Notes: generated by a model not told the origin, from the letters alone. A stretch of DNA of 64,000 nucleotides from Candidatus Kaiserbacteria bacterium (GCA_016204695.1 JACQKD010000014.1:18562-82561); one strand, 5' to 3'; shown: positions 6,654-43,625, counted from the first letter of the stretch. A program made the numbers and translations.

Positions 6654-9600
6654 ATGACCGAAAATATCAAACTGTTTTCAGAGATTTCCAAGGACGATGC
6701 GGCGAGTGCCGGGGGGAAGGGTGCGTCGCTCGGTGAGATGACACAAGCGGGGATACCGGTGCCGCCGGGATTTGTGGTACTCGCTGGGGCATTCGAGCAG
6801 TTTCTCGAGGAGACGGATCTGCTTGCGGAAATAGATACGATTCTCCATACGGTACAGAAAGAAGAGATGCATACGGTGGAACATGCATCCGAGAAAATTC
6901 AACAGCTTATCTTGGAAGCCAAGATGCCTGCCGACATTGCCGCAGAAATCGAGAAACAATTTAAAGGGCTGGACACCCCGTACGTCGCAGTCCGATCAAG
7001 CGCGACCGCCGAAGACAGCTTGAGCGCCGCGTGGGCGGGACAGCTCGACAGTTATCTCAACACGACTGCCGATACGCTTCTTCAGAATGTTCAGCGCTGT
7101 TGGGCGTCACTTTTTACGCCGCGCGCTATCTTCTATCGTTTCGAGAAAGATCTGCATACGACGAAAATCTCCGTCGCAGTCGTCGTGCAGAAGATGGTCG
7201 AAAGTGAAGTGTCGGGCATCGCCTTCTCGGTGCATCCGGTGACGGAGGATCGCAACCAGCTCATTATCGAAGCGGGCTTCGGCCTCGGCGAGGCGATCGT
7301 GTCGGGACAGATCACGCCGGACAGCTATGTGGTCGAAAAGAACCCGCGCCGCATTATCGATGTCAGTCCAAGCACGCAGAGCCGCGCGCTCTACCGGGCG
7401 GCAAACGGCGGGAATGAATGGAAAGACATTGCCGAGCCGGAGGCATCCTCGCAGGTGCTTACCGAAGAGCGGATATTGGAACTGGCCGGACTGATTCTCA
7501 ACATAGAAAACCATTACGGTTTCCCCTGCGACATCGAATGGGCGTTTGAAAAAGGGACCTTCTATATTGTCCAAAGCCGCCCCATTACGACACTTTCTTC
7601 CGCATCCCAGGCCACCTCTTTGCCCTTGTCTCTTGATCCGAAGAACTACACCTATGTCGGTTTATACAAATCACCGCCGTCCGCTCTTTGGTATTGGTCA
7701 TCCTGGTATGACGCCGAGCTATCTAAAGAACTGGATATCCCCGAAGAGTTCGAGGCATATTTCGGATTGCGCGGGGGGTACAACTGGTGCCTAAAGAAGA
7801 CAGAGGAAGGTTTTAAAGAATTGGTTGCGGCCAAAGTGGAGGCGGGCGATGTCGGGTACTTCGATTCGATCTATGCGACGCTCGACCGGGAATTCGAGCA
7901 TGCAGAAACATTTGCTAAAGCCCTCGGCACGAAAGTCGAGCGCACAAGCTACGAGGAGTTGGTGGCGCATGGCCGCAAGCTCGCATTCTTCTGCTTTATC
8001 AACTGGCAGATTTCGCAGCAGTTCGATCCTATTTTTAAAGATGCAGCACAAAGTGCCGGGATCAGCGAAGACGCCATACAGAGCTATGTACCCCTCCCCA
8101 AGACGCGTTTGAATGAGCAGCATGACGACGTCGTGGAAATAAAGAAGATGATCGAGTTGAAGGGTCTGTGGGAGCTTCTCAAAGAAGATGCGACCAAAGC
8201 TATATCGGAAATGCAGTCCGATTCGGAGTTGCAGGGACGGATAGACCGCCATCTCAAGACATATGCGTGGCTCAATATCCAAAATTGGATCGGCGAGCCG
8301 CTGACACTTGAAAAGCTCCTGGAGCAAATGACGCTCATTACCTCACACGAGGCAGATCCCATCAAGGCTGCTCCGTCTGGATTCGAGAAATATGTACATA
8401 TCGCCGAACGGATCGGCAAGCTGCGCAATGCCGGGATCGAGGACTTCTCCATCTATATGCACGCCGTCATGCCGCATCTCGAGCAACTTGCAGAACGCGC
8501 AGGTATCACGTACCGAGACCTTCTTCTGCTCACGCCGCTTGAAGTATTTTCCGGAGATTCGCTTGCAACGGATATGCGCGAGAAAATCTCTCGTCGACAA
8601 AACGACAATTGGTGCGTCTATCCGAATCTGGAGACCCGAAGCGTGGAGATAACCGACGACACGGAGGTGATCGCCAATATCGCCGAGCGCTTCTTGCCGA
8701 AGGTCGAAGTCTCCGAGGATGGCAGTATCAAAGGACAAGTGGGTAACAAAGGGAAGGCGATCGGTCCTGTTCGCGTCATTATTGCCACCGATGATTTTCA
8801 TAAGATGCGACCGGGAGATGTGCTTGTCACGCCGATGACCACGCCGGACTTCGTACTCCTCATGCAACAGGCGGCGGCAATCGTGACCGACATGGGCGGA
8901 TTGCTCTGTCATGCGGCAATCGTCTCGCGCGAGCTCAATAAGCCCTGTGTGATCGATACGAAGTTTGCGACACAGATTCTCCGCGACGGCGATATGGTGG
9001 AGGTCGACGCCGACAACGGCGTCGTGCGCCCGCTTATAAACGAGATCACCACCATCGACTGGGAACTGTGGATACGCAGGCAAGATCAGCCGCCATTTCT
9101 TATTTCACTATGGATGCCGATGGAAGGACCGATGATGGCGTCCCGCATTGGCGGAGGATTTACAAAACAGCTCTGCTTGCGATACGCCGACGACACCTTG
9201 TGGATCCGCTCGTCTTCGGACATGAAGCAACTGATGCGGAATATTCGAGAATTTCTCGCCGGTCAGTCTTCGGGTGCTCTGGCAACATTGTTTGCGACTG
9301 CAGATACAATCGCAGAACAGACTCCGGAGTTTATGAAAGAAGTACAGAGGTACCCGGAAGAAAAGTTACTCTCCGATTTTGAGTCGCTCATCAAACGTGT
9401 GGTGGAGATAGCGTTCTATACCACTTCGATGCCGTATTTCGCCATGGAGGCAATCGGCACAGATGAGGTCGAGATACCCAATGCGGAGCAGATACGCACC
9501 GGAGCCGAGAAACTCCGCGCAACGTCCTTTTACGTCGAACTTAAGACAAAAGTACTCGACCGGATAGTCCGGGCATTCGCCAAGAAATATACTATCGACG

Positions 9601-10136
9601 CACATTTGGTGTTCTCCATGACAGTGGACGAAATGCGCGAGACAATGAAAGCCGGTATGCTCGCTGTCGCCTCAAGTGAGCTGGTATCGCGAGAAAATTG
9701 CGCCCATTGGTACATGGGCGACAAAATAGTTTTTTCGACCGATCCGAAACTGATGGAAACGCTCCGAAACAAAGTCATCGACGTACCGGATGACGCGAAA
9801 AGCACCCGGTCCGTCAAAGGCGCTGTCGCTTTCCCCGGAAAGGTGACGGGTACGGCGCGGATCGTCATGGTGCCTGCAGATATGGCGAAAGTACGAAAAG
9901 GAGACATTCTCGTGGCGCCGACGACCAATCCTACGCTTATGCCCGCGCTTATGACTTGTGGCGCGATCGTCACCGACGAGGGCGGCATCGCAAGCCATGC
10001 CGCGATCGTCTCGCGCGAGCTTCGAAAGCCCTGTGTCGTGGGCACCAAATACGCGACACATATCATCGCCGAAGGAGATACGGTGGAAGTCGACGCGGAT
10101 CAAGGTATAGTGAGAGTATGCCTACCAAGTACATAA
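6654..10136 (+). CDS. multidomain PEP-utilizing-enzyme family phosphotransferase: N-terminal PPDK_N ATP-grasp domain plus two PEP-utilizing mobile (swivel phosphohistidine) domains; rifampin-phosphotransferase/PEP-synthase-like
   Basis: N-terminus [10 protein letters not shown]...[12 protein letters not shown]...VVVQKMV matches PEP synthase/PPDK nucleotide-binding domain. Two copies of the mobile domain are present: ...[10 protein letters not shown]...[49 protein letters not shown] and ...[10 protein letters not shown]...[49 protein letters not shown]. There is no PEP/pyruvate TIM-barrel domain. Confidence 0.85.
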   Translation: [1160 protein letters not shown]

Positions 10137-11194
10137 GTACCGACTACTATTTTCATTTCCAGACCGGCAAGGTGCATTTTCTGCTTGCCGACATGTTTGC
10201 GCACTATTACAGCGACTTTGACGGCGTGATGCTCTCCGGTAAGGATCAGTACTCTGACTACATACACAAAAGCGGCATTGCCGAAACCGAACGAGTATAC
10301 AAGGATTTTTACAAAGACAACGATTCCCTGCGACAAATCGGTGACACGTTTGATCGCGCGGAGAAAGAGCTCCTCGATCAGCAGTCAGCCATCGCAACGA
10401 CAGAAAAGATCACTTCTGCCGACTTTGAGTCGTTTATCACATCAGCCGCGGCCATATTGGATGCATATGCGGCGTTCGACCATATTTTCACCGACCATTT
10501 ATTTAAGGACAAGCGGGAGGATATCGAAGGACTCGTTCGGGTCGCCACAGAAAAAAAGAACGTACTGCGCGAACGCATCGACCCGATTCTTTTTGGCGAT
10601 GGCACGTTCGTCGCGCTGGTGCGGAAGATCGCGAGTCAATACGGCGTTCCCGAGGATCGTATTTTCGCCGCGTCGATAGACGAAGTGCGCGAACTGCTCG
10701 CTTTCGGAAAAATGCCGGAACGAGACATACGAAACAGCGACTATGTCGTGGTCCGGGATCATGACACATATACGTATTACTTCGGAGATGAAGCGACCGC
10801 GTTTATCGCAGGATTTATCGTGGAGGAGCATCACGGGGAGGTCGGAGAGTTGAAGGGCGTATCGGTTTCCAAGAAAGGCGTCTATACGGGAACGGTGAGA
10901 AAAACATCCGTCGACTATACAAATCTCAAGGGAAGCATCGCGGAGTTTGAACACATTCCTGCAGGAATGATTCTTGTCACAGAAATGACCGTTCCGGAGA
11001 TGGTCTCGTTGATGGCTCGCTCGAAGGCAATCGTTACCGACATCGGCGGTATGCTCTGTCATGCGGCCATCACGAGCCGCGAGCTTGGCATCCCCTGCAT
11101 CATCGGCACGAAGCTCGCGACCAAAATTCTCCAGGACGGAGACGAAGTGGAAGTCGACGCGGACAAGGGGATTGTAACAATACTTACACAATAA
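10118..11194 (+). CDS. PEP-utilizing enzyme mobile-domain protein (unknown N-terminal domain plus C-terminal swivel phosphohistidine domain)
   Basis: C-terminus GVYTGTVRK...[49 protein letters not shown]. Start at internal ATG 10118 (MPTKYIS), overlapping the upstream gene end by 19 nt; the ORF-track start 9956 lies inside the upstream gene. Confidence 0.75.
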   Translation: [358 protein letters not shown]

Positions 11195-11204
11195 CTACAC
11201 AAGA

Positions 11205-12644
11205 ATGTCTCACGTTACGTATAAGGGTTTGCAGTTCGATCTTGCCTTTAAGGAATTCCATCCCCCATTACCGCTTTCGTTCTGGTCGAGTGACATATTT
11301 CTTCAGACGTATCAGCGGATAAGCGGTACCGACGTTGGTTTTATATATGCGGTAGTAGATTCTGAACTTACTGGCTATATGGAGACTGGCGGGTCGGAGC
11401 GTATCTGGGCAGCGTTGCAGGCCACACTGACGGAGGAATGGCTCCGTGGGGAACTAGAAAACTTTACACGGCAGTTCGCACATCTGAAGGCGCTTGTCGA
11501 TCCGGCTCGCACAAGCGTCTATTCACGAGGAGCACTAGTTGACCTTTTCGAATCTCTTCGCAAAACACTCGGAGAAATCTACCCGTACAGCAATGCGTTT
11601 TACGTATTGAGCAGTGAGATTGAGAAAAACGTACTTGAGAAACTCAGCAGCGCCTACGGGGAAGAGAGGGCGAACGAGATACTGGCGCAATCGAGCAGGC
11701 CCTCCCCGTCGACATCTTTGGTCACATACTGGGAACGTGTACGGTTTCTGGCCGATCGCATAGCGGGTACGCACGGAAAGGTCAAGGAGAAAGATGTTGC
11801 GGACTTGTGCGAGAATCATGACGACCTCCGAGACGAACTGGAAACCATTCGAAACGACTATTTTTGTCTGACAGCTTTAAATGCAGAAGAACGGACGGTC
11901 GCATCGATCCTCCCGGACATTGTATCCGTGATGGAGACGCCGATGCATGTAGCGGCGCCTGCGCGACCACCTGAAGTCGAAAAAGATCTATCTCTCCTTC
12001 GCACGATGATCTACTTCAAAGATGAGATATCGACCTTCATTATTCCGTATGTCTTTCATGGTCTCAAGAAACAATGGGACGCTACAGCGGCCCTGCTTGC
12101 GATTACTCCGAAAGATCTCGAGCAACTACTCATGGAAGAAGTGATAGGCGCTCTGAAACATCCCACCGAGCTGACAGAACTCGTCGAAAAAAGAAAACGG
12201 GCGACGCTTTTCTTCCATGCTCCGTTTAAGAGCACGGAAGTTATCGAAGGCACCGAAGCATCGGACGTAATCGCTTCGCTCGCCTCACAAAATCAGACGA
12301 CAGATTACTCCACCGTTACGGAAATCAAAGGAAAGGCGGGCGCTCCCGGCACGGTCACCGGTATTGTCCATAAAATCATGCACTCCAATGACATCCAGAA
12401 TTTTAAAGAAGGACACATTCTGGTGACGGTGTACACTGCACCGGAATTTGTTCCCGCCATGAAGAAGGCACGGGCCATCGTGACCGATACTGGAGGAATT
12501 ACCTGTCACGCGGCCATCGTCTCACGCGAACTCCACAAACCCTGTGTTGTAGGCACAAAAATCGCCACTGAAGTGCTCAAAGACGGAGACGAAGTGGAAG
12601 TCGACGCGGACAAGGGGATTGTAACAATACTGCACAATGAGTGA
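11205..12644 (+). CDS. PEP-utilizing enzyme mobile-domain protein (paralog)
   Basis: C-terminus [16 protein letters not shown]...[49 protein letters not shown]. Confidence 0.75.
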   Translation: [479 protein letters not shown]

Positions 12645-14079
12645 TCGGCCCTTCCCCGCAGAGGATTGGACATTTGAGTTCCAACAGAGAGGCGCTCATC
12701 CCGTCGTGATGGCCGATATCTGGTGTCGGGCGGTGTATTTCAATTTTCCCCGAGCCATAGATCTGGGTACCGTGGGCTACGACTATCTGATGACTTCCGA
12801 GTACAAGGGTTATTACCGGGCCGGAGCGCGGGAGCAAATGTTGGAAATATTCAAGGAACGGCTACAGAGTGACCCGACGTATCTCAACTACATTCTCGAT
12901 TCAACCGAAAGAAAAGCCGGGGACTTCAAGTCGTATGTGGCAGGCGGTGAGTGGGACTGGAATGCGTTTATTGAAAAGACACTCGAACTTGTCCCATGGT
13001 TCTACATACCTTGGTACGTAATGGAGTTCAACATACTGTCCGACCGAGTCGTCGGGGGTCTTGAACCGTATCGCCATACCATTGAAAACATCGTCGACTT
13101 CAATACTGCGAGCATGTTGCTGATGTTCCCCGATAAGGAAATGGAGTTCCAGAGAGAACAGGCCGCGTTCTATGCGCTTGTAACAGAAGTGAAGGAGGGT
13201 AGAGACATCGATCCTCGATCGTATCTCGAACGATTCGGCTGGATGAAAACCTTTATCCTTGCTCCCGAGGAGCCGCTCACCGAACAGGAACTAAACAAAA
13301 AGATTAAAACTGCCATTGCAGAGAGGAGCGATGAAACCTACGAACTCCAGCGGAAAAGGAGAGACGGAGACAGGGGGACGATTGTCGAACTCGAATCGCT
13401 CATCGCCGGAGACAAAAGATTGCGCCGAAGCATAGATGATGCTCGCCATCTTGGGTGGCTCCTCACCTGGAGCGTGGAAACTTCGATGCGGGCTTTCGCG
13501 ATGGGCATTCCCCGGTACAAAGAGATCGCAGACAGAATCGGACTTCTATATGATGATTGGGTATACCTCACGACTACCGAGGTTGAGCAATCTATCGCCG
13601 AAAGAAAATGTGTTGTCTCTCGCGAAGAAATAGATGCCCGCAAAGAAGCGTGGATCGTGTCGATACACGATGGTGTATTGGATATCGTGTCCGGAAGCAA
13701 AGCGAAAGAAAATATCGAGCAATTGCATATGAAGGAGACATCGAATGTTCAAAAGGATACGCAGGAAGTCGTCGGAAAACAGGCCTGCGCAGGGAAAGCA
13801 AATGGTCATGTGAGAATATGCTTGACCGCAACTGATGCGGAAGCGGTACGAGAAGGAGACATTCTGGTATGCAGTATGACCACCCCCGATTATGTCCCGG
13901 CCATGAAGCGGGCCGGGGCGATCGTCACCGATGAGGGTGGACTGCTTTGTCACGCGGCGATTATCTCTCGCGAACTCGGGAAGCCATGCGTGATCGCGAC
14001 ACGGATCGCGACGACCGTATTCAAGACCGGGGACGAGGTGGAAGTGGATGCCGATAAGGGGATTGTGAGAAAAGTATGA
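12637..14079 (+). CDS. PEP-utilizing enzyme mobile-domain protein (paralog)
   Basis: C-terminus [11 protein letters not shown]...[49 protein letters not shown]. The start overlaps the upstream stop by 8 nt. Confidence 0.75.
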   Translation: [480 protein letters not shown]

Positions 14080-15098
14080 ATTCGCGCCCGTATACCAAAC
14101 TGTTCACGCGCGACAACGGCCTACTGGTCTTCGAGCTGTGGTATGAGAGCGAGGTAAACCATTTGGAGAAATGGTTGGGATGGGCGCCCAAGAGCTATCT
14201 ACTGCACGCGGTCGAAGGCGTCACCGAAGTCTATTATGATCCGGCTGATCTCGAAGAACTGAATCGCCGGATTGCCGCGAAGCTGAAAGACACCGACTTT
14301 CTTCCAAATCTCATTTCCTGGTACAAAGAAGCGCTTGTGCCGCTTCAACGTGCGTGGAAAGAAAGGAAACCGTTGGGGAGCACGAAAGCGCTCGTCGAGC
14401 TTTTTGATAAGGGTGCTCTCGCCTGGTCGGGACTCGCGATCACGTACTTGATACCGAATCTACCGGAAGGCGAAGCGAGTCGTGACCAGACCTCTGCGGC
14501 ACTCGCGGCGCGTACGGAGACGGAGAATTTTTTTGATGATACCGACCAAGTCTTCCTCATGACACTGCGAGCGTTATTTCCCAGTCTCGGTACACGTTCA
14601 CGATATATTCTCGCAGACGAATTACGCAGAGACGCCATTCCGGAAGAAGATGTGCTCGCGAAGCGCGAGAAACATTTCATCTTCTACCGCGGCACGCTAT
14701 ATACCGACATGACTCTGGAGATGTTTGCGCATGACCACGACATCCGTCTCGAAGAAGAAACCATATCGCAATCCGGCGAGATCAAAGGACAGATCGCCAT
14801 GGGCGGAACCGCTATCGGAAAAGTCCGCGTAATTCTGAAAAAACAGGACATACCGCAGGTCGAAGAAGGAGAAATATTGGTCACCACCATGACAACTCCC
14901 GACTACCTCCCCGCAATGAAAAGAGCGGCGGCGTTTGTCACCGACGAGGGCGGCATCACGTCGCATGCGGCGATCATCGCGCGCGAATTCAAAAAGCCCT
15001 GCATCGTCGGCACCAAAATCGCGACGAAGTTCCTCAAGACCGGCGACACGATAGAAGTGGATGCCGACAAGGGGATCGTGCGAATTTTGGAAAGATAA
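14076..15098 (+). CDS. PEP-utilizing enzyme mobile-domain protein (paralog)
   Basis: C-terminus [12 protein letters not shown]...[49 protein letters not shown]. ATGA start/stop overlap with the upstream gene. Confidence 0.75.
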   Translation: [340 protein letters not shown]

Positions 15099-29031: not shown

Positions 29032-29104
29032 GCCACCTTAGCTCAGTTGGTAGAGCACCACTTTCGTAAAGTGGGGGTCCTCGGTTCAATCCCGAGAGGT
29101 GGCT
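29032..29104 (+). tRNA. tRNA-Thr (anticodon CGU)
   Basis: Cloverleaf: acceptor gccacct/aggtggc, D arm tagctcagttggtagagc, anticodon stem ccact/agtgg with loop ttCGTaa, T arm ctcgg-ttcaatc-ccgag. Confidence 0.8.
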
Positions 29105-29178: not shown

Positions 29179-29886
29179 ATGCTGATTCTCACAAAAAACA
29201 TTCTGGAGAAAGAGTACTGTAACAACAAAAAATCAGTCGCTGAGATAGCTAAATTTTTTAATTGTTCGCAACACAAAATAAACTATTGGCTGGGTAAGTA
29301 TCACATTCCTAAAAGAAAAATTTCGGAAGCGATGTATATCAAATGGAATCCGAGGGGTGATCCTTTTGCCTTTAATAACCCACAAACCTTAGACAAAGCA
29401 TTCCTATGGGGATTGGGACTCGGATTATTTTGGGGAGAAGGTAATAAGAAGAACACGGACTCGGTCCGACTGGGTAACGTGGATCCCGGACTTATACGAA
29501 CGTTTTTAAAGTTTCTTGACGAGATCTATACTATTGATCATGCACGACTGAGATTCGGGCTTCAGACTTTTACCGACATTGGTGAGAATGCGGCAGTCGC
29601 TTATTGGTGTCGGGAGTTGCGAGCAAACCGCCGACAATTCTATAAAGTTACAGTCACGCGCTCTGGAAGTCTTGGAACATATCGAGAAAAAAGTAAGCAC
29701 GGAGTTCTAACTATCTATTTCCACAACAAAAAACTTCGTGATAGTATCGTCAATGCGATTGGGGAATTGGGTTCTGGTTCCATTCGCAAAAGTGCCATCT
29801 TAGCTCAGTTGGTAGAGCGCGTCCATGGTAGATCGCAAAAGATCTCTGCCCTTTGGGACAGAAACGTCCCATCGAATCCCGAATAA
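29179..29886 (+). CDS. HTH plus degenerate LAGLIDADG-like (putative homing endonuclease) protein; the 3' end runs into the tRNA-Thr(GGU) 5' exon
   Basis: N-terminal HTH-like KSVAEIAKFFNCSQHKINYWL; central AFLWGLGLGLFWGEGN resembles a single LAGLIDADG motif (acidic E in the catalytic position) followed by an I-CreI-like FLKFLDEIY region. The locus is AT-rich. The exact C-terminus is uncertain because the frame stays open through the tRNA exon into the intron. Confidence 0.4.
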   Translation: MLILTKNILEKEYCNNKKSVAEIAKFFNCSQHKINYWLGKYHIPKRKISEAMYIKWNPRGDPFAFNNPQTLDKAFLWGLGLGLFWGEGNKKNTDSVRLGNVDPGLIRTFLKFLDEIYTIDHARLRFGLQTFTDIGENAAVAYWCRELRANRRQFYKVTVTRSGSLGTYREKSKHGVLTIYFHNKKLRDSIVNAIGELGSGSIRKSAILAQLVERVHGRSQKISALWDRNVPSNPE

Positions 29887-30075
29887 CGGTCAACGGCCTG
29901 ACACCGGTTAAGACCGTGGCCTTCTCTCAATAGAAGGCCCGAACGACTGACACGGGAAGTTTCATTCGCCGACGGGTGAAGATGCTTAAGATACAGTCTA
30001 GCCCTCTTATAGTGTCTGTCGAAAAAGAGGTGTAAGCGAAGGACGAGGTCCCCGGTTCAATCCCGGGAGATGGCT
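29794..30075 (+). tRNA. tRNA-Thr (anticodon GGU) interrupted by a 209-nt intron in the anticodon loop (between positions 36/37)
   Basis: 5' exon 29794-29829 (acceptor gccatct, D arm, anticodon stem cgtcc, loop atGGT) and 3' exon 30039-30075 (aa, ggacg, variable aggtc, T arm cccgg-ttcaatc-ccggg, acceptor agatggc, discriminator t). The joined exons closely resemble canonical bacterial tRNA-Thr(GGU). Confidence 0.6.
29830..30038 (+). ncRNA. putative group I intron (209 nt) in tRNA-Thr(GGU)
   Basis: Boundaries obey group I rules (5' exon ends in U, intron ends in G). The size is similar to the smallest known tRNA group I introns. An internal acagtctag segment resembles a P7/R-element-like sequence. 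No ORF inside. Confidence 0.45.
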
Positions 30076-30096
30076 CAATAGATCCATAGGCGGAAG

Positions 30097-36390: not shown

Positions 36391-36423
36391 GGACGCATCA
36401 AATGATGCGTCCACCTATTTTTT
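36391..36423 (+). terminator. rho-independent terminator abutting tRNA-Gln
   Basis: ggacgcatc-aaat-gatgcgtcc followed by acctatttttt. Confidence 0.5.
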
Positions 36424-36493
36424 GCCGGGTCGTCTAATGGTAGGACTCGGGACTTTGAATCCCGCTATCTTGGTTCGAATCCAAGCCCGGCAG
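36423..36493 (+). tRNA. tRNA-Gln (anticodon UUG)
   Basis: Acceptor tgccggg/cccggca with U1-A72 (typical for bacterial tRNA-Gln), anticodon stem cggga/tcccg with loop ctTTGaa, T arm cttgg-ttcgaat-ccaag, discriminator G. Confidence 0.8.
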
Positions 36494-36707
36494 CAATATG
36501 TATTGGAGCTTTGCCGTAGTAAATAATAGATTAGCGGAAGTATTCTTTGATAAGACCAAAAAGGGTACGACAAAAATCCACGGACATTGCTATGTCAAGA
36601 AGGAAGAATATAAAACCAAAAAAGAACAATTGTGGATCAAGAAAGACTGCGAACGAATCCGTCTTGTATACAGAAACAAAAAGTATCGTAAAATAGGATA
36701 GCTCGCT

Positions 36708-37361
36708 ATGAAATTACTTCTCACCTCGTCCGGGTTTACGAATACATCGATAACAAATGCCTTGCGGGAATTACTTGGTAAAGACTTCAAAGACACGAAT
36801 CTTGTATTTATCCCGACCGCCGCCAATGTCGAGACAGGCGGCAAAGAGTGGCTCATCGACGACTTTATCGCGTGCAAAAAACTCGGCTTTAAGGAAATCG
36901 ATATAGTCGACATCGCGGCCGTCCCGCAAGAAGTATGGGAACCTCGGCTCAAGAACGCGGACATCATCATGGTCGGCGGAGGCAACACCTCATACCTCAT
37001 GGGACAGATAAAAAAGTCAGGGCTGGGAACCCTTCTGCCCGACCTGCTGGAAACACGCATCTATGTGGGCATAAGCGCCGGCAGTATGGTAACTGCGCCG
37101 AAGTTGCAAGAAAAAGAAATGCAAATGCTCTATAACGAACCGATTTTTGATGACGAAACCAATGAGGGTTTGGGCTTTGTTGATTTTCTCGTCGTGCCGC
37201 ATATGAATTCGCCGCACTTCCCTCGTGTCGCCGAACAGATAGACGAAGTTGCCAAAGACACCGATGTCCCGTTCTATGCGCTGGACGACCAATCGGCCGT
37301 GAAAGTTACTGACGGAAATGTCGAAGTCGTTTCAGAGGGGAAGTGGAAGCGATTTAATTAG
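36708..37361 (+). CDS. peptidase S51 (peptidase E/cyanophycinase-like) family protein
   Basis: GISAGSMV nucleophile motif (G-x-S-A-G-S); type-1 glutamine amidotransferase-like fold pattern. Confidence 0.6.
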   Translation: MKLLLTSSGFTNTSITNALRELLGKDFKDTNLVFIPTAANVETGGKEWLIDDFIACKKLGFKEIDIVDIAAVPQEVWEPRLKNADIIMVGGGNTSYLMGQIKKSGLGTLLPDLLETRIYVGISAGSMVTAPKLQEKEMQMLYNEPIFDDETNEGLGFVDFLVVPHMNSPHFPRVAEQIDEVAKDTDVPFYALDDQSAVKVTDGNVEVVSEGKWKRFN

Positions 37362-37563
37362 TTCCTTTGATTGACCACTTTTGCTGATGCGGTAGCCCAG
37401 TTTTTGATTCCTGTGATCGCACTCACTTTCGGTACATCTACTCCCTGTGGCGTCATCCAAGTCTTCGTCCTCGTTTCCGCCATATCAGCCCTCCTCTTCC
37501 GCCAGACAAGTCAAACGGGTACAATGCCCAGCATTATGTGGCCAGACCAATGCAGAGCAACAA

Positions 37564-38010
37564 ATGGCGACTTGTAAAGATCTAAAAACAATTGCAAAAG
37601 CAAGACTGCGGAGTGCAGTAATTCTAATCGATGCTGGCGACTGGGATGGAGCGGCTTACATGATGGGTTACGTCCTAGAATGCGCTCTTAAGGCTGCTGT
37701 ATGCAAGTCGCTACGGTTGACAGACTACCCTCAAAATCGTAAAACTGATACCCATTTTCTCACACATAACTTCGATCAGCTCGTTGTTTTATCAGGGGTA
37801 TCGGACTTATTTGATTCCAACGCAAGCTCAAGTGTGTTCCAAAATTGGTCCGACTTTACAAAGGAGTTTTTGGGTGATTGGCCTGCTATGAGATATAACA
37901 TTCAACACCAACAGACATTTACTGAAATCAAAGTGAGAGACCTGTATACTAACCTTACAGACAAACCAGATGGAATTCTCGCCGTGATAACTAGAAAAAA
38001 ACGATGGTAG
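37564..38010 (+). CDS. HEPN domain protein
   Basis: Helical pattern AKARLRSAVILIDAGDWDGAAYMMGYVLECALKAAVCK and an R-x4-H motif (AMRYNIQHQQ); AT-rich locus; start at internal ATG of ORF 37447. Confidence 0.5.
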   Translation: MATCKDLKTIAKARLRSAVILIDAGDWDGAAYMMGYVLECALKAAVCKSLRLTDYPQNRKTDTHFLTHNFDQLVVLSGVSDLFDSNASSSVFQNWSDFTKEFLGDWPAMRYNIQHQQTFTEIKVRDLYTNLTDKPDGILAVITRKKRW

Positions 38011-38393
38011 AAAAATTTGAAAAAATATTAGAGAAAATCAAATCCGAGAAGGGGCCTCTGACCTTCTTTGGTATATTCAAGATGGATGAATTAACAGATA
38101 AATGGTCCGTCCTATTGTCCGCTACATGGGCATCGGAACACAGCAAAAGAATAGAGGCATTTGAATATCTTTTAGATCTCTTAAGAAAAAATTTGACCTC
38201 GGAGGAAGCACGTTCAATTGCTCGCATCGGAGTATTCTCAAACGATGAACATTTGATCGATTTACTATTGAATTTCCAAAAAGGTTCAAGGATCAGAGAA
38301 CAAAGTATCAACGGAAACATCATACACGATGGCTATGTGTTAGAAGCCAATCGAATAGTCGAATCAGAAATTGTCCCTATACCCGATTATTAG
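38004..38393 (+). CDS. hypothetical protein, translationally coupled partner of the HEPN gene
   Basis: ATG overlaps the HEPN stop (atggtag); 129 aa. There is no nucleotidyltransferase (MNT) GS-x9-D-x-D motif, so it is not a canonical HEPN-MNT partner. Confidence 0.45.
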   Translation: MVEKFEKILEKIKSEKGPLTFFGIFKMDELTDKWSVLLSATWASEHSKRIEAFEYLLDLLRKNLTSEEARSIARIGVFSNDEHLIDLLLNFQKGSRIREQSINGNIIHDGYVLEANRIVESEIVPIPDY

Positions 38394-38412
38394 TTTTATC
38401 ATTACTTCTTAT

Positions 38413-38796
38413 ATGCAAGAACAACTGGATACTGCGGGGGAGTTTTCGCTGGTGAGGCGGGCGAGGAGTTTTGTGCATGCGGGGAGGGGCATTTGGGTAT
38501 TTTTGAAAACCACGCCGAATGCATGGATTGAAATCACCATATTCATCGGAGCGGTAGCGGCCGGTATCGTCGTCGGCCTCACCTATATCGAATGGATCCT
38601 GCTCGTATTTGCCGCAGGATTCGTTCTCGTGTCCGAGGCCTTCAATACGGCCATAGAAATAGACATCAACCTCACCTCTCCCGAATACCATCCCTATGCC
38701 AAAGATACGAAAGATGTCGCCGCAGGCGCGGTGCTCATCGCCTCCATCACCGCCCTCATCATCGGTCTCGCCATCTTCGGCCACCATCTGCTATAG
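38413..38796 (+). CDS. dgkA: diacylglycerol kinase family protein (DgkA/undecaprenol kinase-like)
   Basis: VSEAFNTAIEIDIN and YHPYAKDTKDVAAGAVLIA match prokaryotic DAGK motifs; three TM helices. Confidence 0.75.
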   Translation: MQEQLDTAGEFSLVRRARSFVHAGRGIWVFLKTTPNAWIEITIFIGAVAAGIVVGLTYIEWILLVFAAGFVLVSEAFNTAIEIDINLTSPEYHPYAKDTKDVAAGAVLIASITALIIGLAIFGHHLL

Positions 38797-38798
38797 TT
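38767..38798. repeat. direct repeat copy 1 (3' end of dgkA), also found at 41468-41499
   Basis: ctcgccatcttcggccaccatctgctatagtt versus ctcgccatcttcggccgtcatctgctatagtt (30/32 identical). Confidence 0.6.
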
Positions 38799-38811
38799 CC
38801 ATATCCACCGC

Positions 38812-39150
38812 ATGCAAAAAGTATTGTCCATATCTCTATATTCGGCCCCGATCATTTTGATGATCGGATTGATCCCTTTGATCCGGGACGACTATGTGCT
38901 CACCGCAGTCTATATAGTGATTATTGCCGTATCTCTCAAATTGATTACGGCGAAACGAAACGACCTTGTTGTCCTCATATTCGGTTTTTTCGCGATGATT
39001 GTCTCCGAATACATCTTCATCAGCACGGGCGCGGAAACATTCGTCAGGAATTCCTTGTTCGGTCTCATGCCCCTTTGGCTACCATTTCTGTGGTCCTATG
39101 GTTTTGTCGCGATAAAGAGGGCGATGGCAGTGCTTGGAACAGACAGGTAA
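38812..39150 (+). CDS. small integral membrane protein (hypothetical)
   Basis: Four predicted TM helices; 112 aa. Confidence 0.45.
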   Translation: MQKVLSISLYSAPIILMIGLIPLIRDDYVLTAVYIVIIAVSLKLITAKRNDLVVLIFGFFAMIVSEYIFISTGAETFVRNSLFGLMPLWLPFLWSYGFVAIKRAMAVLGTDR

Positions 39151-39203
39151 GGCAGAGATATATCAAACCGCATGAAAATCTTCGCTATATAATTCATCCG
39201 TAT

Positions 39204-40208
39204 ATGGAACGACCGCCTGCAATCAGATTTTCAATGTTTGAGGACTTCGCCATACGGACGGAACGGAAGGAGAATCCCCGCACCATGCCGTACGTCCTTT
39301 GTTCCGTATCCGCGTTCAGCGGTCAGCGAGAACGGATAAGTCGCATGCTGAAGGACGATATGGAGCGCCTTTTCCGCGAATCTTCCACACAAAAAGAAGT
39401 GGTGACCGTAGAGCCGGCACGTGAGTTTTTGCAGACCGTGTGGCAAAGAGACAGTTATCTTTATTTTAACGGCGTCTACTTTCCTTGGCGATGGATCGAT
39501 ACAAAAGGCCAGAACCGTCCCGAGCGCGAAGCATATGTGCTAAAGATGATGGGGATGAAAGATAGCGTCTCTCTTGAAAAAGTACTGCCGCGGATACTGA
39601 CTGACAGGGACGAGGGAATGTTTGCCATGGGTGAAGGGGGGCTGTATTTCCCCGATCACGACAATAATACGCTGTTTATTTCTCGAGGAATCGTCGCTGA
39701 AGAAGGTACTCTCTCTGAAGAAGAACTTACTAAACGCCTTACAGATATGCATAAGCACATTTTTGGCGACGACATCGACGTCACGGTATTGCCGCAACCG
39801 GATACGACTCCGCATCTTGATACTCATTTTTCTGTTATTCCTAGGACCAAGATTGCGCTATTTGAAAACGGATACTATGGAAAAGCCGAGGGAGCCGGTG
39901 CGATGGAGACATTGGATCAGCTGGGATACGAAAGCGTTCAGACACCGCCGAGCGTTCTCTCGCGTCCTCTCAATATTTTCTATATGGAAAACGATGCGGG
40001 TACGGTATGTGCGTACGTCTATCCGAGCATCAATGAGTCAGTCCGAGACCTCTTGCACCAGAACAACGTAGAGACATACGATATGTCGCCAGCTCTTGGC
40101 AACATCCTCGACGCACAGGAAGGCGGCCCGCGATGTATCACCAACGAAGTCCACACCAAAGACCCTGCTTTCATCAGGAACCTCGGGTTTAAAGCTCCTT
40201 CCTTATGA
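39204..40208 (+). CDS. amidinotransferase/arginine-deiminase-like (guanidino-group-modifying enzyme superfamily) protein
   Basis: PHLDTHFSVIP (H-L-D-T, as in arginine deiminase) and C-terminal EGGPRCITNEV (catalytic Cys context, as in agmatine deiminase/DDAH). Start at the Met 10 nt downstream of a TATAAT box. Confidence 0.5.
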   Translation: MERPPAIRFSMFEDFAIRTERKENPRTMPYVLCSVSAFSGQRERISRMLKDDMERLFRESSTQKEVVTVEPAREFLQTVWQRDSYLYFNGVYFPWRWIDTKGQNRPEREAYVLKMMGMKDSVSLEKVLPRILTDRDEGMFAMGEGGLYFPDHDNNTLFISRGIVAEEGTLSEEELTKRLTDMHKHIFGDDIDVTVLPQPDTTPHLDTHFSVIPRTKIALFENGYYGKAEGAGAMETLDQLGYESVQTPPSVLSRPLNIFYMENDAGTVCAYVYPSINESVRDLLHQNNVETYDMSPALGNILDAQEGGPRCITNEVHTKDPAFIRNLGFKAPSL

Positions 40209-41191
40209 ATGCGCAAAAATATATCATGTCTCAGCTTCAGGTTCTCAAAGAGCCGATATTGCTTGGGGTAAAACCAAAGAGCGCCGAAGAAATGGCGAAA
40301 GCTATTTTTACGGCTCTTATGTCAAAAAAGTTTAGGAAGTATTCCGTGCCTGAAAAGAATCAGGTAATAATCCGTGGAGCCATAGAGAAAAACATAGCGA
40401 ATGGTGAACCCATAAAGATATCATGGCCATTTGGAGGTTATAAGCTGTGGCGCTTTGAAGAAACTCCGGAGGTAGACTGGGCAGAGTTATTTTCTATCAT
40501 GTATTTTGTTCGTTGGCTCAAGCCGGTGTGTGCCCTCTATCAGAAAGGGGTCGAGTTTACGTTTTGGGTCGACGAGGTAGTGATAGCAAAGATGAATAAT
40601 ATTCCTCAGGCAGACCTGGACGCATACCAAAAAAGTTTTGCCGACCTTTTGAAGTTCGTCAAACCGTGGTTGCCCTCCAACCTAAAATTTGAAGTCTTTC
40701 TTGAGAGGTTACAATACGAAAGTAACGAAGCTTTCGAAAAAGGACTGGCAGTGGAGATGGAAAAACTAAGCAACGCCAGGGCCGCAAGTCCACAACCCCT
40801 GTCTGAGGCAGCCATACGCTCGATTGACATGAATGTAAAATTGACGCCAAGACAGGCCCAAGATCCATTCTGGCGGGAGAAGGTGGATCTTATGCACTAC
40901 GCCTACTACAACTTACAAGAGCAGCAAAACCGTATCCGGCCGTCTTATACAACTGTAAATATAACCGCATTTACGACTTTCTTTGAACCGAACGTGATTC
41001 CTGTCGGCACCACTAAAACCTCCATTGCGAAGTTTTGGGTCGGTGTTGGAGCGCTTCAGAGACGCGGGGATAGATTTATAGAAACTATCTTTTCTCTTTC
41101 ACAAATCGACAAGGCACATGCTGTATGGGAATCTGTGAAGATTGTTGGGTTGCGTGGAAAGAACTTCTCAAAGATTAGAGTCGTCGGGTAA
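40205..41191 (+). CDS. hypothetical protein
   Basis: 328 aa; ATGA overlap with the upstream gene; no recognised motif. Confidence 0.45.
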   Translation: MNAQKYIMSQLQVLKEPILLGVKPKSAEEMAKAIFTALMSKKFRKYSVPEKNQVIIRGAIEKNIANGEPIKISWPFGGYKLWRFEETPEVDWAELFSIMYFVRWLKPVCALYQKGVEFTFWVDEVVIAKMNNIPQADLDAYQKSFADLLKFVKPWLPSNLKFEVFLERLQYESNEAFEKGLAVEMEKLSNARAASPQPLSEAAIRSIDMNVKLTPRQAQDPFWREKVDLMHYAYYNLQEQQNRIRPSYTTVNITAFTTFFEPNVIPVGTTKTSIAKFWVGVGALQRRGDRFIETIFSLSQIDKAHAVWESVKIVGLRGKNFSKIRVVG

Positions 41192-41393
41192 TCCTCAAGG
41201 AACTGAAACTGTCTTGTTTGGCAGGAATCTCATACAGCCATATGGGTTTTGTACGTCCGGGGTTCTGTGACTGAACAAATAGACAGGAGAAGATATCCTG
41301 GATACTTCATCTTGGGAGCGAAAAACAGTGCACTTGATTCCAGAACCAGGATCATTTTCGATAGGAGTTAGGTATACTTATTCCACGACGAAA

Positions 41394-41466
41394 ATGCAGA
41401 AACTGCCCAAGCTGGAGAAGGGGGACAAAGTAGCGATTTTGTCGCCGTCGTTTGCGGCAGGGTCGG
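41394..41466. repeat. diverged duplicate of the 5' end of the LD-carboxypeptidase gene (original at 42594-42666)
   Basis: atgcagaaactgcccaagctggagaagggggacaaagtagcgattttgtcgccgtcgtttgcggca versus atgcggaaactgccaaaactacagaaaggggacaaggtggcgattttgtcgccgtcgtttgcggcg; includes a 26-nt identical core. Confidence 0.6.
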
Positions 41467-41467
41467 C

Positions 41468-41499
41468 CTCGCCATCTTCGGCCGTCATCTGCTATAGTT
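41468..41499. repeat. direct repeat copy 2 (duplicate of the dgkA 3' end)
   Basis: See copy 1 at 38767-38798; immediately follows the ldcA 5' duplicate. Confidence 0.6.
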
Positions 41500-41507
41500 T
41501 GTCCAAT

Positions 41508-42146
41508 ATGCGAAAGCTTGTCGTACCACTGTATCTGCAAGCACCGAAATCAGTGGATTGCGGACCGGTATGTGTCCGAATGGTGTTATCCTATTTTGGC
41601 ATCCGCCGAAGTTTGGCCTTCTTGCAGAAAAAACTCCATTACGACAAAACAGGGACATCGTCGTACGACAACGGCGCATTACTCCTCGATGAAGGATTGC
41701 GGGTAACAGCCGTCACCGCCAACCCGATGCTTTTCCCGCCCGACATTGTCCGCTCGCTTAAGAATAAGAAGCACCTCCAAGAGTTGATCACTAAAAAGAG
41801 CAAAACGACCCCTAAATATAAAAAATGTTTGAAGACTTTAGAGAAATTCCTGGAAAAAGGAGGTAATTTAATAATTGAAATCCCGAACGCGAAACACGTA
41901 CGCGCCGCGATCGACGCAAAGCGACCGATTATCGCATTACTCTACGGAAAAGCAATGGGGAGCAACGAAGGAACGTTCCACTTTGTTGTGGTTACGGGAT
42001 ATGACGGCAAACACGTCTTCATCAACAACCCGTATCCGAAGTCAAAACGGCAGTGGAAATGCCCGATGGATACTTTTCTCTATGCGGTCCATTCCTCAAG
42101 TGTGGGATATATAGACAATGCAACGTTGTTAATTATCTCTAAATAA
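41508..42146 (+). CDS. peptidase C39-like domain protein
   Basis: DCGPVCVRMVLSYFG (catalytic Cys context of C39-like/BtrH-type domains) and a downstream FHFVVVTGYDGKHVFINNP His region. Start at internal Met, because the upstream part of ORF 41328 is a chimeric ldcA-5'/dgkA-3' duplicate. Confidence 0.5.
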   Translation: MRKLVVPLYLQAPKSVDCGPVCVRMVLSYFGIRRSLAFLQKKLHYDKTGTSSYDNGALLLDEGLRVTAVTANPMLFPPDIVRSLKNKKHLQELITKKSKTTPKYKKCLKTLEKFLEKGGNLIIEIPNAKHVRAAIDAKRPIIALLYGKAMGSNEGTFHFVVVTGYDGKHVFINNPYPKSKRQWKCPMDTFLYAVHSSSVGYIDNATLLIISK

Positions 42147-42173
42147 GCTCCAGATACTATTCAAGATATAGCT

Positions 42174-42569
42174 ATGAAAACAGAAACAAACGGATTTTCT
42201 TTCATTTTGAAACCGTCGACAATCGTCGAGGCGGGAATCGGGGTATTCGCACTGCATGATATCGCCAAGGGCACCCATATGGCATTGTTTCTGAAAGACT
42301 TTGAGGAAATGATGTATAAGCCGGAGGATGTGCCGGAAGAATTGCAAGGATATTGTCTTGACCTGCCCGATGGGAAGCTTCAATGTCCAAAATATTTCAA
42401 CCGAATGGACATCGGGAACTATCTAAATCACTCGGAAAATGCCAATATACGGTGGGAGGGAGAGAAGGGATATTTTGCCGCCCGCGACATCCGGAAAGGC
42501 GAAGAAATCCTCGCCGACTACCGCCAGCTCGGTGAGCCGGAAGACACCTGGGCGGAGTATTATAGATAG
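42174..42569 (+). CDS. SET domain protein (putative lysine methyltransferase)
   Basis: NHSENANIRWEGE (equivalent of the NHSCxPN motif) and YFAARDIRKGEEILADY (the ELxxDY motif); ~130-aa minimal bacterial SET. Confidence 0.65.
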   Translation: MKTETNGFSFILKPSTIVEAGIGVFALHDIAKGTHMALFLKDFEEMMYKPEDVPEELQGYCLDLPDGKLQCPKYFNRMDIGNYLNHSENANIRWEGEKGYFAARDIRKGEEILADYRQLGEPEDTWAEYYR

Positions 42570-42584
42570 GGAATAATTCACTCC

Positions 42585-43625
42585 ATGACAGAAATGCGGA
42601 AACTGCCAAAACTACAGAAAGGGGACAAGGTGGCGATTTTGTCGCCGTCGTTTGCGGCGCCGGGAAAATGGCCGCAGGTGTATGAGCTCGGACTCACGCG
42701 AGTGCGGGAAGTATTCGGCTTGGACCCGGTCGAATTCCCGACAACCAAAAAGATTGGTGCGTCGGGGGAGGAACGGGCGAAGGACATCATCGACGCGTTC
42801 ACGAATCCCGAGATTAAAGCGGTAATTACCACGCTTGGCGGCAACGACCAAGTCACCTACATCAAGAATCTTCCCGCAGAGCCATTTGTCGAGAACCCGA
42901 AACCGTTTTTCGGGTACAGCGACAATTCGCATTTCTGCAACTTTCTTTTCCTCAATGGCATTCCGTCATACTATGGCGCTTCACTTTTTACGCAGTTTGC
43001 AATACAGGGTGAGATGGATGCCTATACCGTCGAATACATCAACCATGCACTTTTTGACGAGGATGAATTCGAAATCAGACCGTCGGAAGAGTACAACGAC
43101 AAGGGTCTTGATTGGAACAATACTGACCTTCTCGGGACCCGCCGCACCTACTGGCTGAACGAGGGGTGGCATTGGGACGGTGAACAGAGCGCGGAGGGAC
43201 TCCTGTGGGGAGGATGCATCGAGTCGGTCGATGAGATGCTCCGCCACGGCGTGCCTATTCCCACGCTCGAACAATTCACGGACATCGTACTCATGCTTGA
43301 GTCGTCAGAAGAAATACCGCCCGCACAGTATGTATCCCGGATACTTCGGGCGCTCGGCGAGCGGGGGATACTGAAGCAGGTAAAAGGCGTGCTTGTCGGC
43401 CGGCCGAAAGCATGGGAATTCGACAAGCAGAATACCGATGATGAAAAGAAAGCGTATCGCGCGGAACAGCGGGAAATTGTCCTCAAAACAGTCCGTGCGT
43501 ACAATGTCAATATCCCCATCGTCCAAAATCTCGACTTCGGCCACACCGACCCGCAACTCCCGATGCCCTACGGCGGAAAGGTGCGTATAGACTCCGAAGC
43601 CAAGAAGATTTTTGCTGACTTTTAA
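42585..43625 (+). CDS. ldcA: LD-carboxypeptidase (peptidase S66) family protein
   Basis: GDKVAILSPSF N-terminal nucleophile region and overall S66 pattern; start may be the Met at 42594. Confidence 0.8.
   Translation: MTEMRKLPKLQKGDKVAILSPSFAAPGKWPQVYELGLTRVREVFGLDPVEFPTTKKIGASGEERAKDIIDAFTNPEIKAVITTLGGNDQVTYIKNLPAEPFVENPKPFFGYSDNSHFCNFLFLNGIPSYYGASLFTQFAIQGEMDAYTVEYINHALFDEDEFEIRPSEEYNDKGLDWNNTDLLGTRRTYWLNEGWHWDGEQSAEGLLWGGCIESVDEMLRHGVPIPTLEQFTDIVLMLESSEEIPPAQYVSRILRALGERGILKQVKGVLVGRPKAWEFDKQNTDDEKKAYRAEQREIVLKTVRAYNVNIPIVQNLDFGHTDPQLPMPYGGKVRIDSEAKKIFADF

Follow-up and report, generated by a model that had tools for sequence, protein, structure and literature searches.

The stretch of DNA analysed here, which we call the window, is 64,000 nucleotides (nt) long and comes from the genome of an uncultivated Candidatus Kaiserbacteria bacterium (GCA_016204695.1 JACQKD010000014.1:18562-82561), a member of the candidate phyla radiation (CPR). 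Between dgkA, which encodes a prokaryotic diacylglycerol kinase, and ldcA, which encodes an LD-carboxypeptidase, the window has two sets of genes, referred to as cassettes 1 and 2. The cassettes are separated by a chimera of 127 nt, named L'D', in which a diverged copy of the 5' end of ldcA (L') is followed by a diverged copy of the 3' end of dgkA (D'). This arrangement probably goes back to a single recombination with DNA from a related strain that carried a different gene set between the same two genes. The features of the region are as follows, with protein lengths in amino acids (aa).

36423-36494, + strand: tRNA-Gln(ttg) (ARAGORN, Rfam), the conserved left border of a hypervariable interval that ends at ldcA
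38413-38796, + strand: dgkA, prokaryotic diacylglycerol kinase, 127 aa, intact (Pfam PF01219, DAGK_prokar, expect value E = 2.4e-28)
38762-38798, + strand: D, reference copy of the D repeat, formed by the final 35 nt of dgkA and 2 further nt
38812-39150, + strand: cassette 1, gene 1, a membrane protein of 112 aa with a weak, sub-threshold DUF2878 match (E = 2e-4)
39204-40208, + strand: cassette 1, gene 2, 334 aa, a rare family, probably with a pentein / guanidino-modifying fold (motifs and a low-confidence model)
40205-41191, + strand: cassette 1, gene 3, 328 aa, with a PvcA/IsnA (isonitrile synthase)-like fold in its predicted structure
41192-41370, + strand: non-coding spacer after cassette 1, with no open reading frame (ORF), possibly the remnant of a decayed gene
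41371-41458, + strand: L', diverged ldcA copy with 23 nt of leader and the first 65 coding nt, encoding MQKLPKLEKGDKVAILSPSFAA
41459-41462, + strand: AGGG filler, read from the sequence, at the putative illegitimate joint between L' and D'
41463-41499, + strand: D', diverged dgkA 3' end, encoding …GLAIFGRHLL and the stop, out of frame with L' and with the C39 gene
41508-42146, + strand: cassette 2, gene 1, a C39-like cysteine peptidase, 212 aa from an internal ATG (Pfam PF13529 and PF03412, Peptidase_C39/C39_2)
42174-42569, + strand: cassette 2, gene 2, a SET-domain protein of 131 aa (Pfam PF00856)
42570-42658, + strand: L, reference copy of the L repeat, with the leader of the intact ldcA and its first 65 coding nt
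42585-43625, + strand: ldcA, LD-carboxypeptidase, 346 aa, intact (Pfam PF02016, Peptidase_S66, and PF17676, S66C), with an alternative start at 42594

When the part of the window from 37.5 to 44.5 kilobases (kb) was compared with itself, D and L were its two strongest repeats. D (38762-38798) and D' (41463-41499) are identical at 34 of 37 positions, chance matches of this kind were obtained in none of 100 shuffles, and a blastn search against the rest of the window gave E = 5e-10. The L repeat has 66 identical positions out of 77 without gaps (41382-41458 versus 42582-42658); if one gap is allowed, it extends over 41371-41458 and 42570-42658 (about 89 nt in L), with about 86% identity, and the E-value against the whole window is 7e-21. 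The two copies are separated only by the 4 nt AGGG, and the L'D' segment is without further matches anywhere in the 64 kb. A repeat scan of the whole window found, in addition, a paralogue array at 8.8-15 kb, two tRNA T-arms and three weak two-copy matches (71-79% identity), and nothing else.

A preliminary description of this DNA had given the order as D, cassette 1, L'D', cassette 2 and L, and the self-comparison, which finds exactly the D and L repeats described there, bears this out. The last 32 nt of dgkA were said to recur with 30 of 32 positions identical, which is correct for the core, and the limits of the repeat are slightly wider than that. The copy of the ldcA 5' end that was placed at 41394-41466 is also present, but the similarity stops at 41458 and not at 41466. 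Finally, the description held that reading through the chimera puts an artificial N-terminal extension on the C39 gene, and three observations agree with it. An ORF of 272 aa (41328-42146) runs through L' and D' into C39; an independent gene caller began the C39 gene at the L' ATG (41394), which gives 250 aa; and the C39 Pfam domain starts about 12 residues past the internal ATG at 41508, which itself is 10 nt downstream of the D' stop codon. Because the domain starts so soon after this ATG, the extension is very likely an annotation artefact of the scar. Gene callers thus fuse the scar to the peptidase gene and add a spurious N-terminus of 38 aa.

The L'D' junction is not a misassembly, because it is also present, with 100% identity, in independent assemblies of other sequencing runs. 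At NCBI the proteins are named as those of a Candidatus Kaiserbacteria metagenome-assembled genome (locus tags HY416_…). The per-run Logan assemblies of three other runs match the window at 100%, and two of their contigs span the junction. One of them (L083, SRR12113383; window 37728-42092) has dgkA, cassette 1, L'D' and 600 nt of C39, and the other (L085, SRR12113430; window 39976-42925) has the 328-aa gene, L'D', cassette 2 and the start of ldcA. The longest exact stretches common to the repeat copies are 26 and 16 nt; none reaches 31 nt, and they are too short to mislead a k=31 graph. One contig (L084, SRR12113384) seemed to have an alternative junction at window position 41384, and this candidate was rejected when the tail of the contig (3378-3395) proved to be the Nextera adapter CTGTCTCTTATACACATCT.

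Divergence of the repeats and variability of the locus

L' differs from L at eight of 65 coding positions, and six of these eight differences are synonymous; D' differs from D at three of 35 coding positions. Taken together, 11 of 100 coding positions differ and 8 of the 11 are third codon positions, a bias that has P = 0.009 under neutrality and P of about 0.03-0.05 if one copy is a dead fragment that decays where it lies and the other stays constrained. L' also encodes an N-terminus that is typical of ldcA orthologues. Because of this N-terminus and the third-position bias, the copies look like two alleles that diverged while they were functional and under purifying selection. At the nucleotide level D' is 92% identical to D and L' is 88% identical to L, and the nearest sampled relatives are lower, with 82% for dgkA (contig L088) and 79% for ldcA (contig L086). 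D' itself is nearer to D (34/37) than to the dgkA end of L088 (26/37). Since D' and L' are closer to D and L than the orthologues of the sampled relatives are, the second set of flanks points to a lineage that would be closer than any sampled relative, yet clearly distinct.

The relatives also indicate that the locus is unusually variable. In three contigs (L086, L087 and L177) tRNA-Gln is located 1.5-1.6 kb upstream of ldcA, with unrelated genes between them and without dgkA. The order in L086 and L087 is pyrG, tRNA-Gln, variable genes and ldcA, and the short contig L177 has the same order from tRNA-Gln onwards, with pyrG past its end. The interval between tRNA-Gln and ldcA is 1.6 kb in L086/L087 (8419-10001 in L086) and encodes a Hydrolase_2 protein and a 216-aa protein; in L177 (127-1620) it is 1.5 kb with three small ORFs. 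In the window (36494-42585) it is 6.1 kb and has a peptidase S51 gene, a HEPN gene of low guanine-plus-cytosine (GC) content with a 129-aa gene, dgkA, cassette 1, L'D' and cassette 2. The core genes that flank the interval are about 80-89% identical at the protein level among the three genomes, and the interval is a hypervariable hotspot in this Kaiserbacteria lineage. Since its contents differ in each genome and dgkA is absent from the closest ldcA relatives, dgkA itself is one of the variable genes, and tRNA-Gln forms the conserved border on the left.

What follows dgkA is variable too. The nearest dgkA homologue (P0122) has 88% aa identity, and the ldcA homologues reach 83-84% protein identity. 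The nearest dgkA relative, L088 (88% protein identity), has dgkA, a LigT-like gene of 188 aa, an ORF of 64 aa (orf64) and a SET gene, after which the contig ends. The SET gene is about 860 nt downstream of dgkA and is 81% identical to the SET gene in the window. The homology of L088 to the window ends precisely with the dgkA stop codon; it starts again 11-13 nt ahead of the SET ATG. Because cassette 1, cassette 2 and the L088 allele all differ, what comes after dgkA takes at least three different forms in this lineage. In a more distant relative (L176), a homologue of the 328-aa gene is also downstream of pyrG and tRNA-Gln; neither this homologue nor those in L175 are flanked by dgkA and ldcA.

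The duplicated gene ends are confined to one strain. Each of 83 ldcA loci and 87 dgkA loci (170 in all) was searched for a repeat of its own gene end, and one was present only in contigs of this strain; therefore, L'D' is a one-off feature rather than something that recurs at such sites. When dgkA, the 328-aa protein, the SET protein, ldcA and the fused 250-aa form of C39 were looked up as exact sequences, the matches were again contigs of this strain only, and for the 212-aa form of C39 there was no record. A metagenome scan with the C39 protein found no relatives, and a scan of viral contigs with the 328-aa protein found nothing.

The low-GC genes of the interval deserve a separate comment. 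The HEPN-domain gene (187 aa; weak PADLOC match to PDC-M28A) overlaps the 129-aa gene, which is of unknown function, just upstream of dgkA (37447-38393, + strand). This pair, in the stretch of the region with the lowest GC content (0.37), may have been acquired recently as a toxin-antitoxin or defence-like module.

Origin of the L'D' junction

We consider it probable that L'D' is the scar left when DNA of a related strain, with a divergence of about 10%, took part in one additive recombination that merged two allelic gene sets. One strain would have had dgkA, the membrane protein, the pentein enzyme, the IsnA-like enzyme and ldcA, and the related strain, diverged by about 8-12% in nucleotides, would have had dgkA, C39, SET and ldcA. 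Two routes can be envisaged. In the first, homologous exchange would have occurred on one side (in ldcA and downstream of it, or in dgkA and upstream of it) and the other end would have been joined illegitimately, so that nt +65 of one ldcA allele was fused to about nt -37 of the other dgkA allele. In the second, a fragment with the dgkA 3' end, C39, SET and the ldcA 5' end, in this order, would have circularised and been integrated by a single crossover. Either route would be additive, that is, it would leave both gene sets in tandem with an intact dgkA and an intact ldcA on the outside and the chimera between them. A single recombination between two allelic versions is the best explanation of the chimera, and a simpler one than site-specific insertion; L'D' itself is best explained as a recombination scar and not as a functional site.

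The first route resembles homology-facilitated illegitimate recombination (HFIR), in which one end of a linear DNA is joined by homology and the second end illegitimately (PMC3240628). HFIR predicts an illegitimate joint between non-homologous sequences, and at L'D' the ldcA copy ends at +65, AGGG follows, the dgkA copy begins at -37, and the parental sequences are dissimilar at the joint. It also predicts an insert from a diverged genome; the 8 third-position differences out of 11 and the normal ldcA N-terminus in L' favour two functional alleles, and no donor genome was found. Uptake of DNA by CPR bacteria is plausible, because natural competence has been demonstrated in CPR Saccharibacteria (PMC10633639).

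Several points weigh against this explanation. The competence has been demonstrated for Saccharibacteria and not for Kaiserbacteria. An allele with a single cassette, either dgkA-C39-SET-ldcA or dgkA-cassette 1-ldcA, was found in none of the collections searched. Because the repeats are short, the codon-position statistics are only moderately strong (P of about 0.05 against decay in place). Finally, all eight differences between L and L' are in the first 39 coding nt and the last 26 nt, beside the joint, are identical, which would not be expected of a simple one-sided event. The same 26-nt patch of ldcA is about half as variable in L086 and L177, and the pattern is not significant; because the patch is also slow in these relatives, we rejected the idea that it is a crossover or gene-conversion tract.

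A tandem duplication in place is a rather unlikely alternative. An illegitimate exchange between sister chromosomes would have doubled everything between the dgkA 3' end and the ldcA 5' end, these ends included, and the copies would later have lost complementary genes, or one of them would have been replaced. The novel junction of such a duplication, a 3' boundary joined to a 5' boundary, is exactly what is seen at 41458-41463, where L' meets D', and the 26 nt of L' that are identical to L beside the joint would also fit. The two units are not copies of each other, however. A comparison of 38799-41370 with 41500-42569 found no similarity beyond short matches at the chance level, the Pfam families differ, and the units share no gene and no remnant of one. 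The spacer at 41192-41370 was searched for remnants of C39 or SET, and none were found. In addition, reciprocal losses would need to have been precise to the gene boundary, considering that only 10 nt separate the D' stop from the C39 ATG, and the third-position bias would not be expected of a dead fragment (P of about 0.03-0.05). An identical duplication of several kb would be expected to collapse by RecA-dependent loss, long before the copies reach a divergence of 8-14%.

The spacer may instead be the remnant of a decayed gene or pseudogene. Its frame-0 translation (…YPGYFILGAKNSALDSRTRIIFD…) has a weak likeness to the C-terminal motif region of the gene that is 3' of dgkA in two other contigs, L103 and L106 (tblastx E = 0.4-1.5). 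The motif region is putatively SpoU/TrmH methyltransferase-like.

The preliminary description had proposed that the cassettes were added by repeated site-specific insertion at an ancestral dgkA/ldcA junction, with duplication of the target each time, in an integron- or att-like manner; the recombinase would then be encoded elsewhere. Some features of the region agree with this proposal. Every cassette has D at its left and L at its right, cassette 1, cassette 2 and the L088 allele all begin exactly at the dgkA stop codon, and the region is downstream of a tRNA gene. Nevertheless, we find it very improbable. The description itself had stated that no integrase is nearby, and this holds for the whole window: Pfam searches of its approximately 60 ORFs, together with the precomputed Pfam matches of two syntenic contigs (L081 and L086), found no Phage_integrase domain and no other recombinase or transposase domain, and neither cassette encodes a recombinase. 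L'D' has no attC-like hairpin (DNA folding z = -0.96 and -0.98 for the two strands relative to shuffled sequences, with z of about 0 for D and L alone), and there are no inverted repeats in it or at the cassette borders.

The repeats themselves also do not behave like an attachment site. An att element would have a single direct-repeat core at both of its ends, usually the 3' end of a tRNA or another gene, and here there are two different repeats, D being 8% and L 12-14% diverged. Both are coding sequence with a synonymous bias, and copies that are 8-14% apart, with 8 of 11 coding differences at third positions, were not made by duplication at the time of insertion. The 3' end of tRNA-Gln has no second copy in the window, such as an att repeat would provide. 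Nor was an ancestral junction found in relatives: dgkA was within 10 kb of ldcA in none of 80 GTDB loci scanned with ldcA (best identity 74%), ldcA was near dgkA in none of 80 metagenome loci scanned with dgkA, and the 170 other loci of the gene-end search have neither a dgkA/ldcA junction nor duplicated gene ends. As for the breakpoints at gene ends, selection alone would also predict them.

A related idea is that the position right after the dgkA stop codon and the ldcA/SET leader are preferred joining points of an integrase-independent mechanism that stacks cassettes in CPR bacteria, with the retained D acting as a portable promoter (TGCTATAGT, extended -10) for each cassette that comes in. 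It is suggested by the L088 allele and the two cassettes, three different contents with exactly this starting point. Both D and D' (38768-38797 and 41469-41498, + strand) contain TCGCCA-18-TATAGT with an upstream TG, a TGCTATAGT match that resembles an extended -10 element and is about 7-14 nt before the first ATG of each cassette. This is a consensus match only, and the region has 7 promoter-like matches compared with 6.2 expected by chance. The 3' end of dgkA could double as a promoter for whatever follows it, and we regard the wider mechanism as a long shot.

Lastly, there is hardly any likelihood that the assembler made the joint out of two strains that lived side by side and had different cassettes within the same flanks. 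The genome was assembled from a metagenome and the Logan contigs break within the C39 gene in two runs, but L083 and L085 cross the joint in per-run assemblies with unique sequence on both sides. The shared exact stretches are too short to give a path in a k=31 graph, a bubble between strains would not yield an adjacency of L' to D', and the odd tail of L084 is adapter.

Cassette genes and other features of the window

No gene of either cassette matches a known defence family in PADLOC. The family of the 334-aa protein of cassette 1 is very rare: among 1.84 billion proteins it has only 7 representative clusters. The conserved motifs GEGG, HLDTH and GG(I/P)RC(I)TNE are pentein-like, and the protein has neither a Pfam match nor a PDB sequence match. 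Its structural model is of low confidence, with a predicted local distance difference test (pLDDT) score of 56, and all significant matches of the model are to pentein-fold proteins, among them agmatine deiminase, DDAH and arginine deiminase (E of about 1e-4). The gene at 39204-40208 had been labelled as a guanidino-modifying enzyme in the preliminary description. The pentein-fold matches make this label plausible, and with a model of low confidence and no Pfam or PDB sequence match the support for it is weak. The gene is translationally coupled to the IsnA-like gene by an ATGA overlap.

The 328-aa protein encoded by that gene has about 1000 homologues, mostly unannotated and largely from CPR bacteria. 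Its model has a pLDDT of 89, and the Foldseek matches are PIsnA (9dh4/9dhm) and PvcA (3e59), with E = 6e-10 and a template modelling (TM) score of about 0.6; there is also a weak match to the Pfam family DIT1_PvcA. In L175, two paralogues of the gene are in tandem.

Elsewhere in the window, a 30-nt repeat at 29076/30047 was considered as a possible att duplication and rejected, as it is actually the T-arm of a second, intron-containing tRNA-Thr. This tRNA-Thr (anticodon GGT; 29792-30078, + strand) is interrupted by about 210 nt of intervening sequence, with the 5' half at 29792-29829 and the 3' half at about 30041-30077. It was missed by ARAGORN and by the Rfam gathering thresholds, and RF00028 gave no match. 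The intron is 88% identical in L086, which makes it more conserved than the adjoining coding sequence, and it carries a TAAGATACAGTC motif that resembles the J8/7-P7 element of group I introns. "Divergent group I introns" at position 36/37 of tRNA-Thr(GGU) have already been described in Patescibacteria, and the intron in the window matches them (PMC13011429).

The paralogue array mentioned above is a tandem array (6654-15098, + strand) of genes with a common repeated C-terminal segment of 150-220 nt. It begins with a 1160-aa PPDK_N / PEP-utilizers protein, and after it come at least three paralogues (479, 480 and 340 aa), each of them ending in a phosphoenolpyruvate (PEP)-utilising mobile domain.

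Comparison with known systems

If L'D' is a recombination scar, as we think probable, the locus has a clean and reproducible footprint of additive recombination between diverged strains in the genome of an uncultivated CPR bacterium. It would mean that the accessory gene sets of reduced CPR genomes can combine without the machinery of mobile elements.

The arrangement can be compared with several known systems. Replacement-type flexible islands beside tRNA genes are similar in that each relative has unrelated genes between conserved flanks, here pyrG and tRNA-Gln on one side and ldcA on the other. They differ in that the present genome has two variants fixed side by side in tandem, with a visible chimeric scar. 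Integron arrays also consist of compact, co-oriented cassettes that look promoter-less and are stacked one way, with a promoter-like element in the left flank. An integron, however, has the tyrosine recombinase gene intI beside its array, a platform promoter for the cassettes, and attC sites, which are imperfect inverted repeats at the cassette ends that form single-strand hairpins. In contrast to integrons, the locus described here has no intI, no attI and no attC hairpins, and its repeats are fragments of protein-coding genes.

Single-crossover integration of the Campbell type and tandem duplication both give merodiploids with the topology D-x-L'-D'-y-L, in which the right boundary is linked to the left one, and this is the topology of the present locus. 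The contents of the two units are unrelated here, however, and the flanks have diverged with a synonymous bias.

In the orphan-module arrays of type VI secretion system (T6SS) effector-immunity, Rhs and contact-dependent inhibition (CDI) loci, modules enter by way of homology in a conserved flank, and the older modules are kept, each behind a fragment of the conserved gene. For the arrays at the T6SS effector-immunity and Rhs loci, in which older modules are displaced but retained, the proposed mechanism is HFIR, and it was explicitly contrasted with integrons (PMC5361080). The cassettes of such arrays are polymorphic toxin C-terminal domains that, with their cognate immunity genes, are located downstream of a conserved core gene. 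The locus in the window differs from them in having no toxin-immunity pairs, the flanks being dgkA and ldcA and the cassette genes encoding C39, SET, pentein-fold and IsnA-like proteins. It also has only two units, and both of its flanks are duplicated rather than one.

The arrangement also resembles the HFIR products of the naturally transformable bacteria Acinetobacter, Pseudomonas stutzeri and Streptococcus pneumoniae, which have one homologous side and one illegitimate joint, in which DNA was added and not swapped, and which need no dedicated recombinase. The joint between L' and D', with its filler of 4 nt, fits an illegitimate end-join of this type. The difference is that the incoming DNA would here be an allelic version of the same locus, and because of this both ends of the insert would carry recognisable copies of the flanking genes. 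The event is of a known kind, here documented in a CPR genome, and it reveals no new kind of system.

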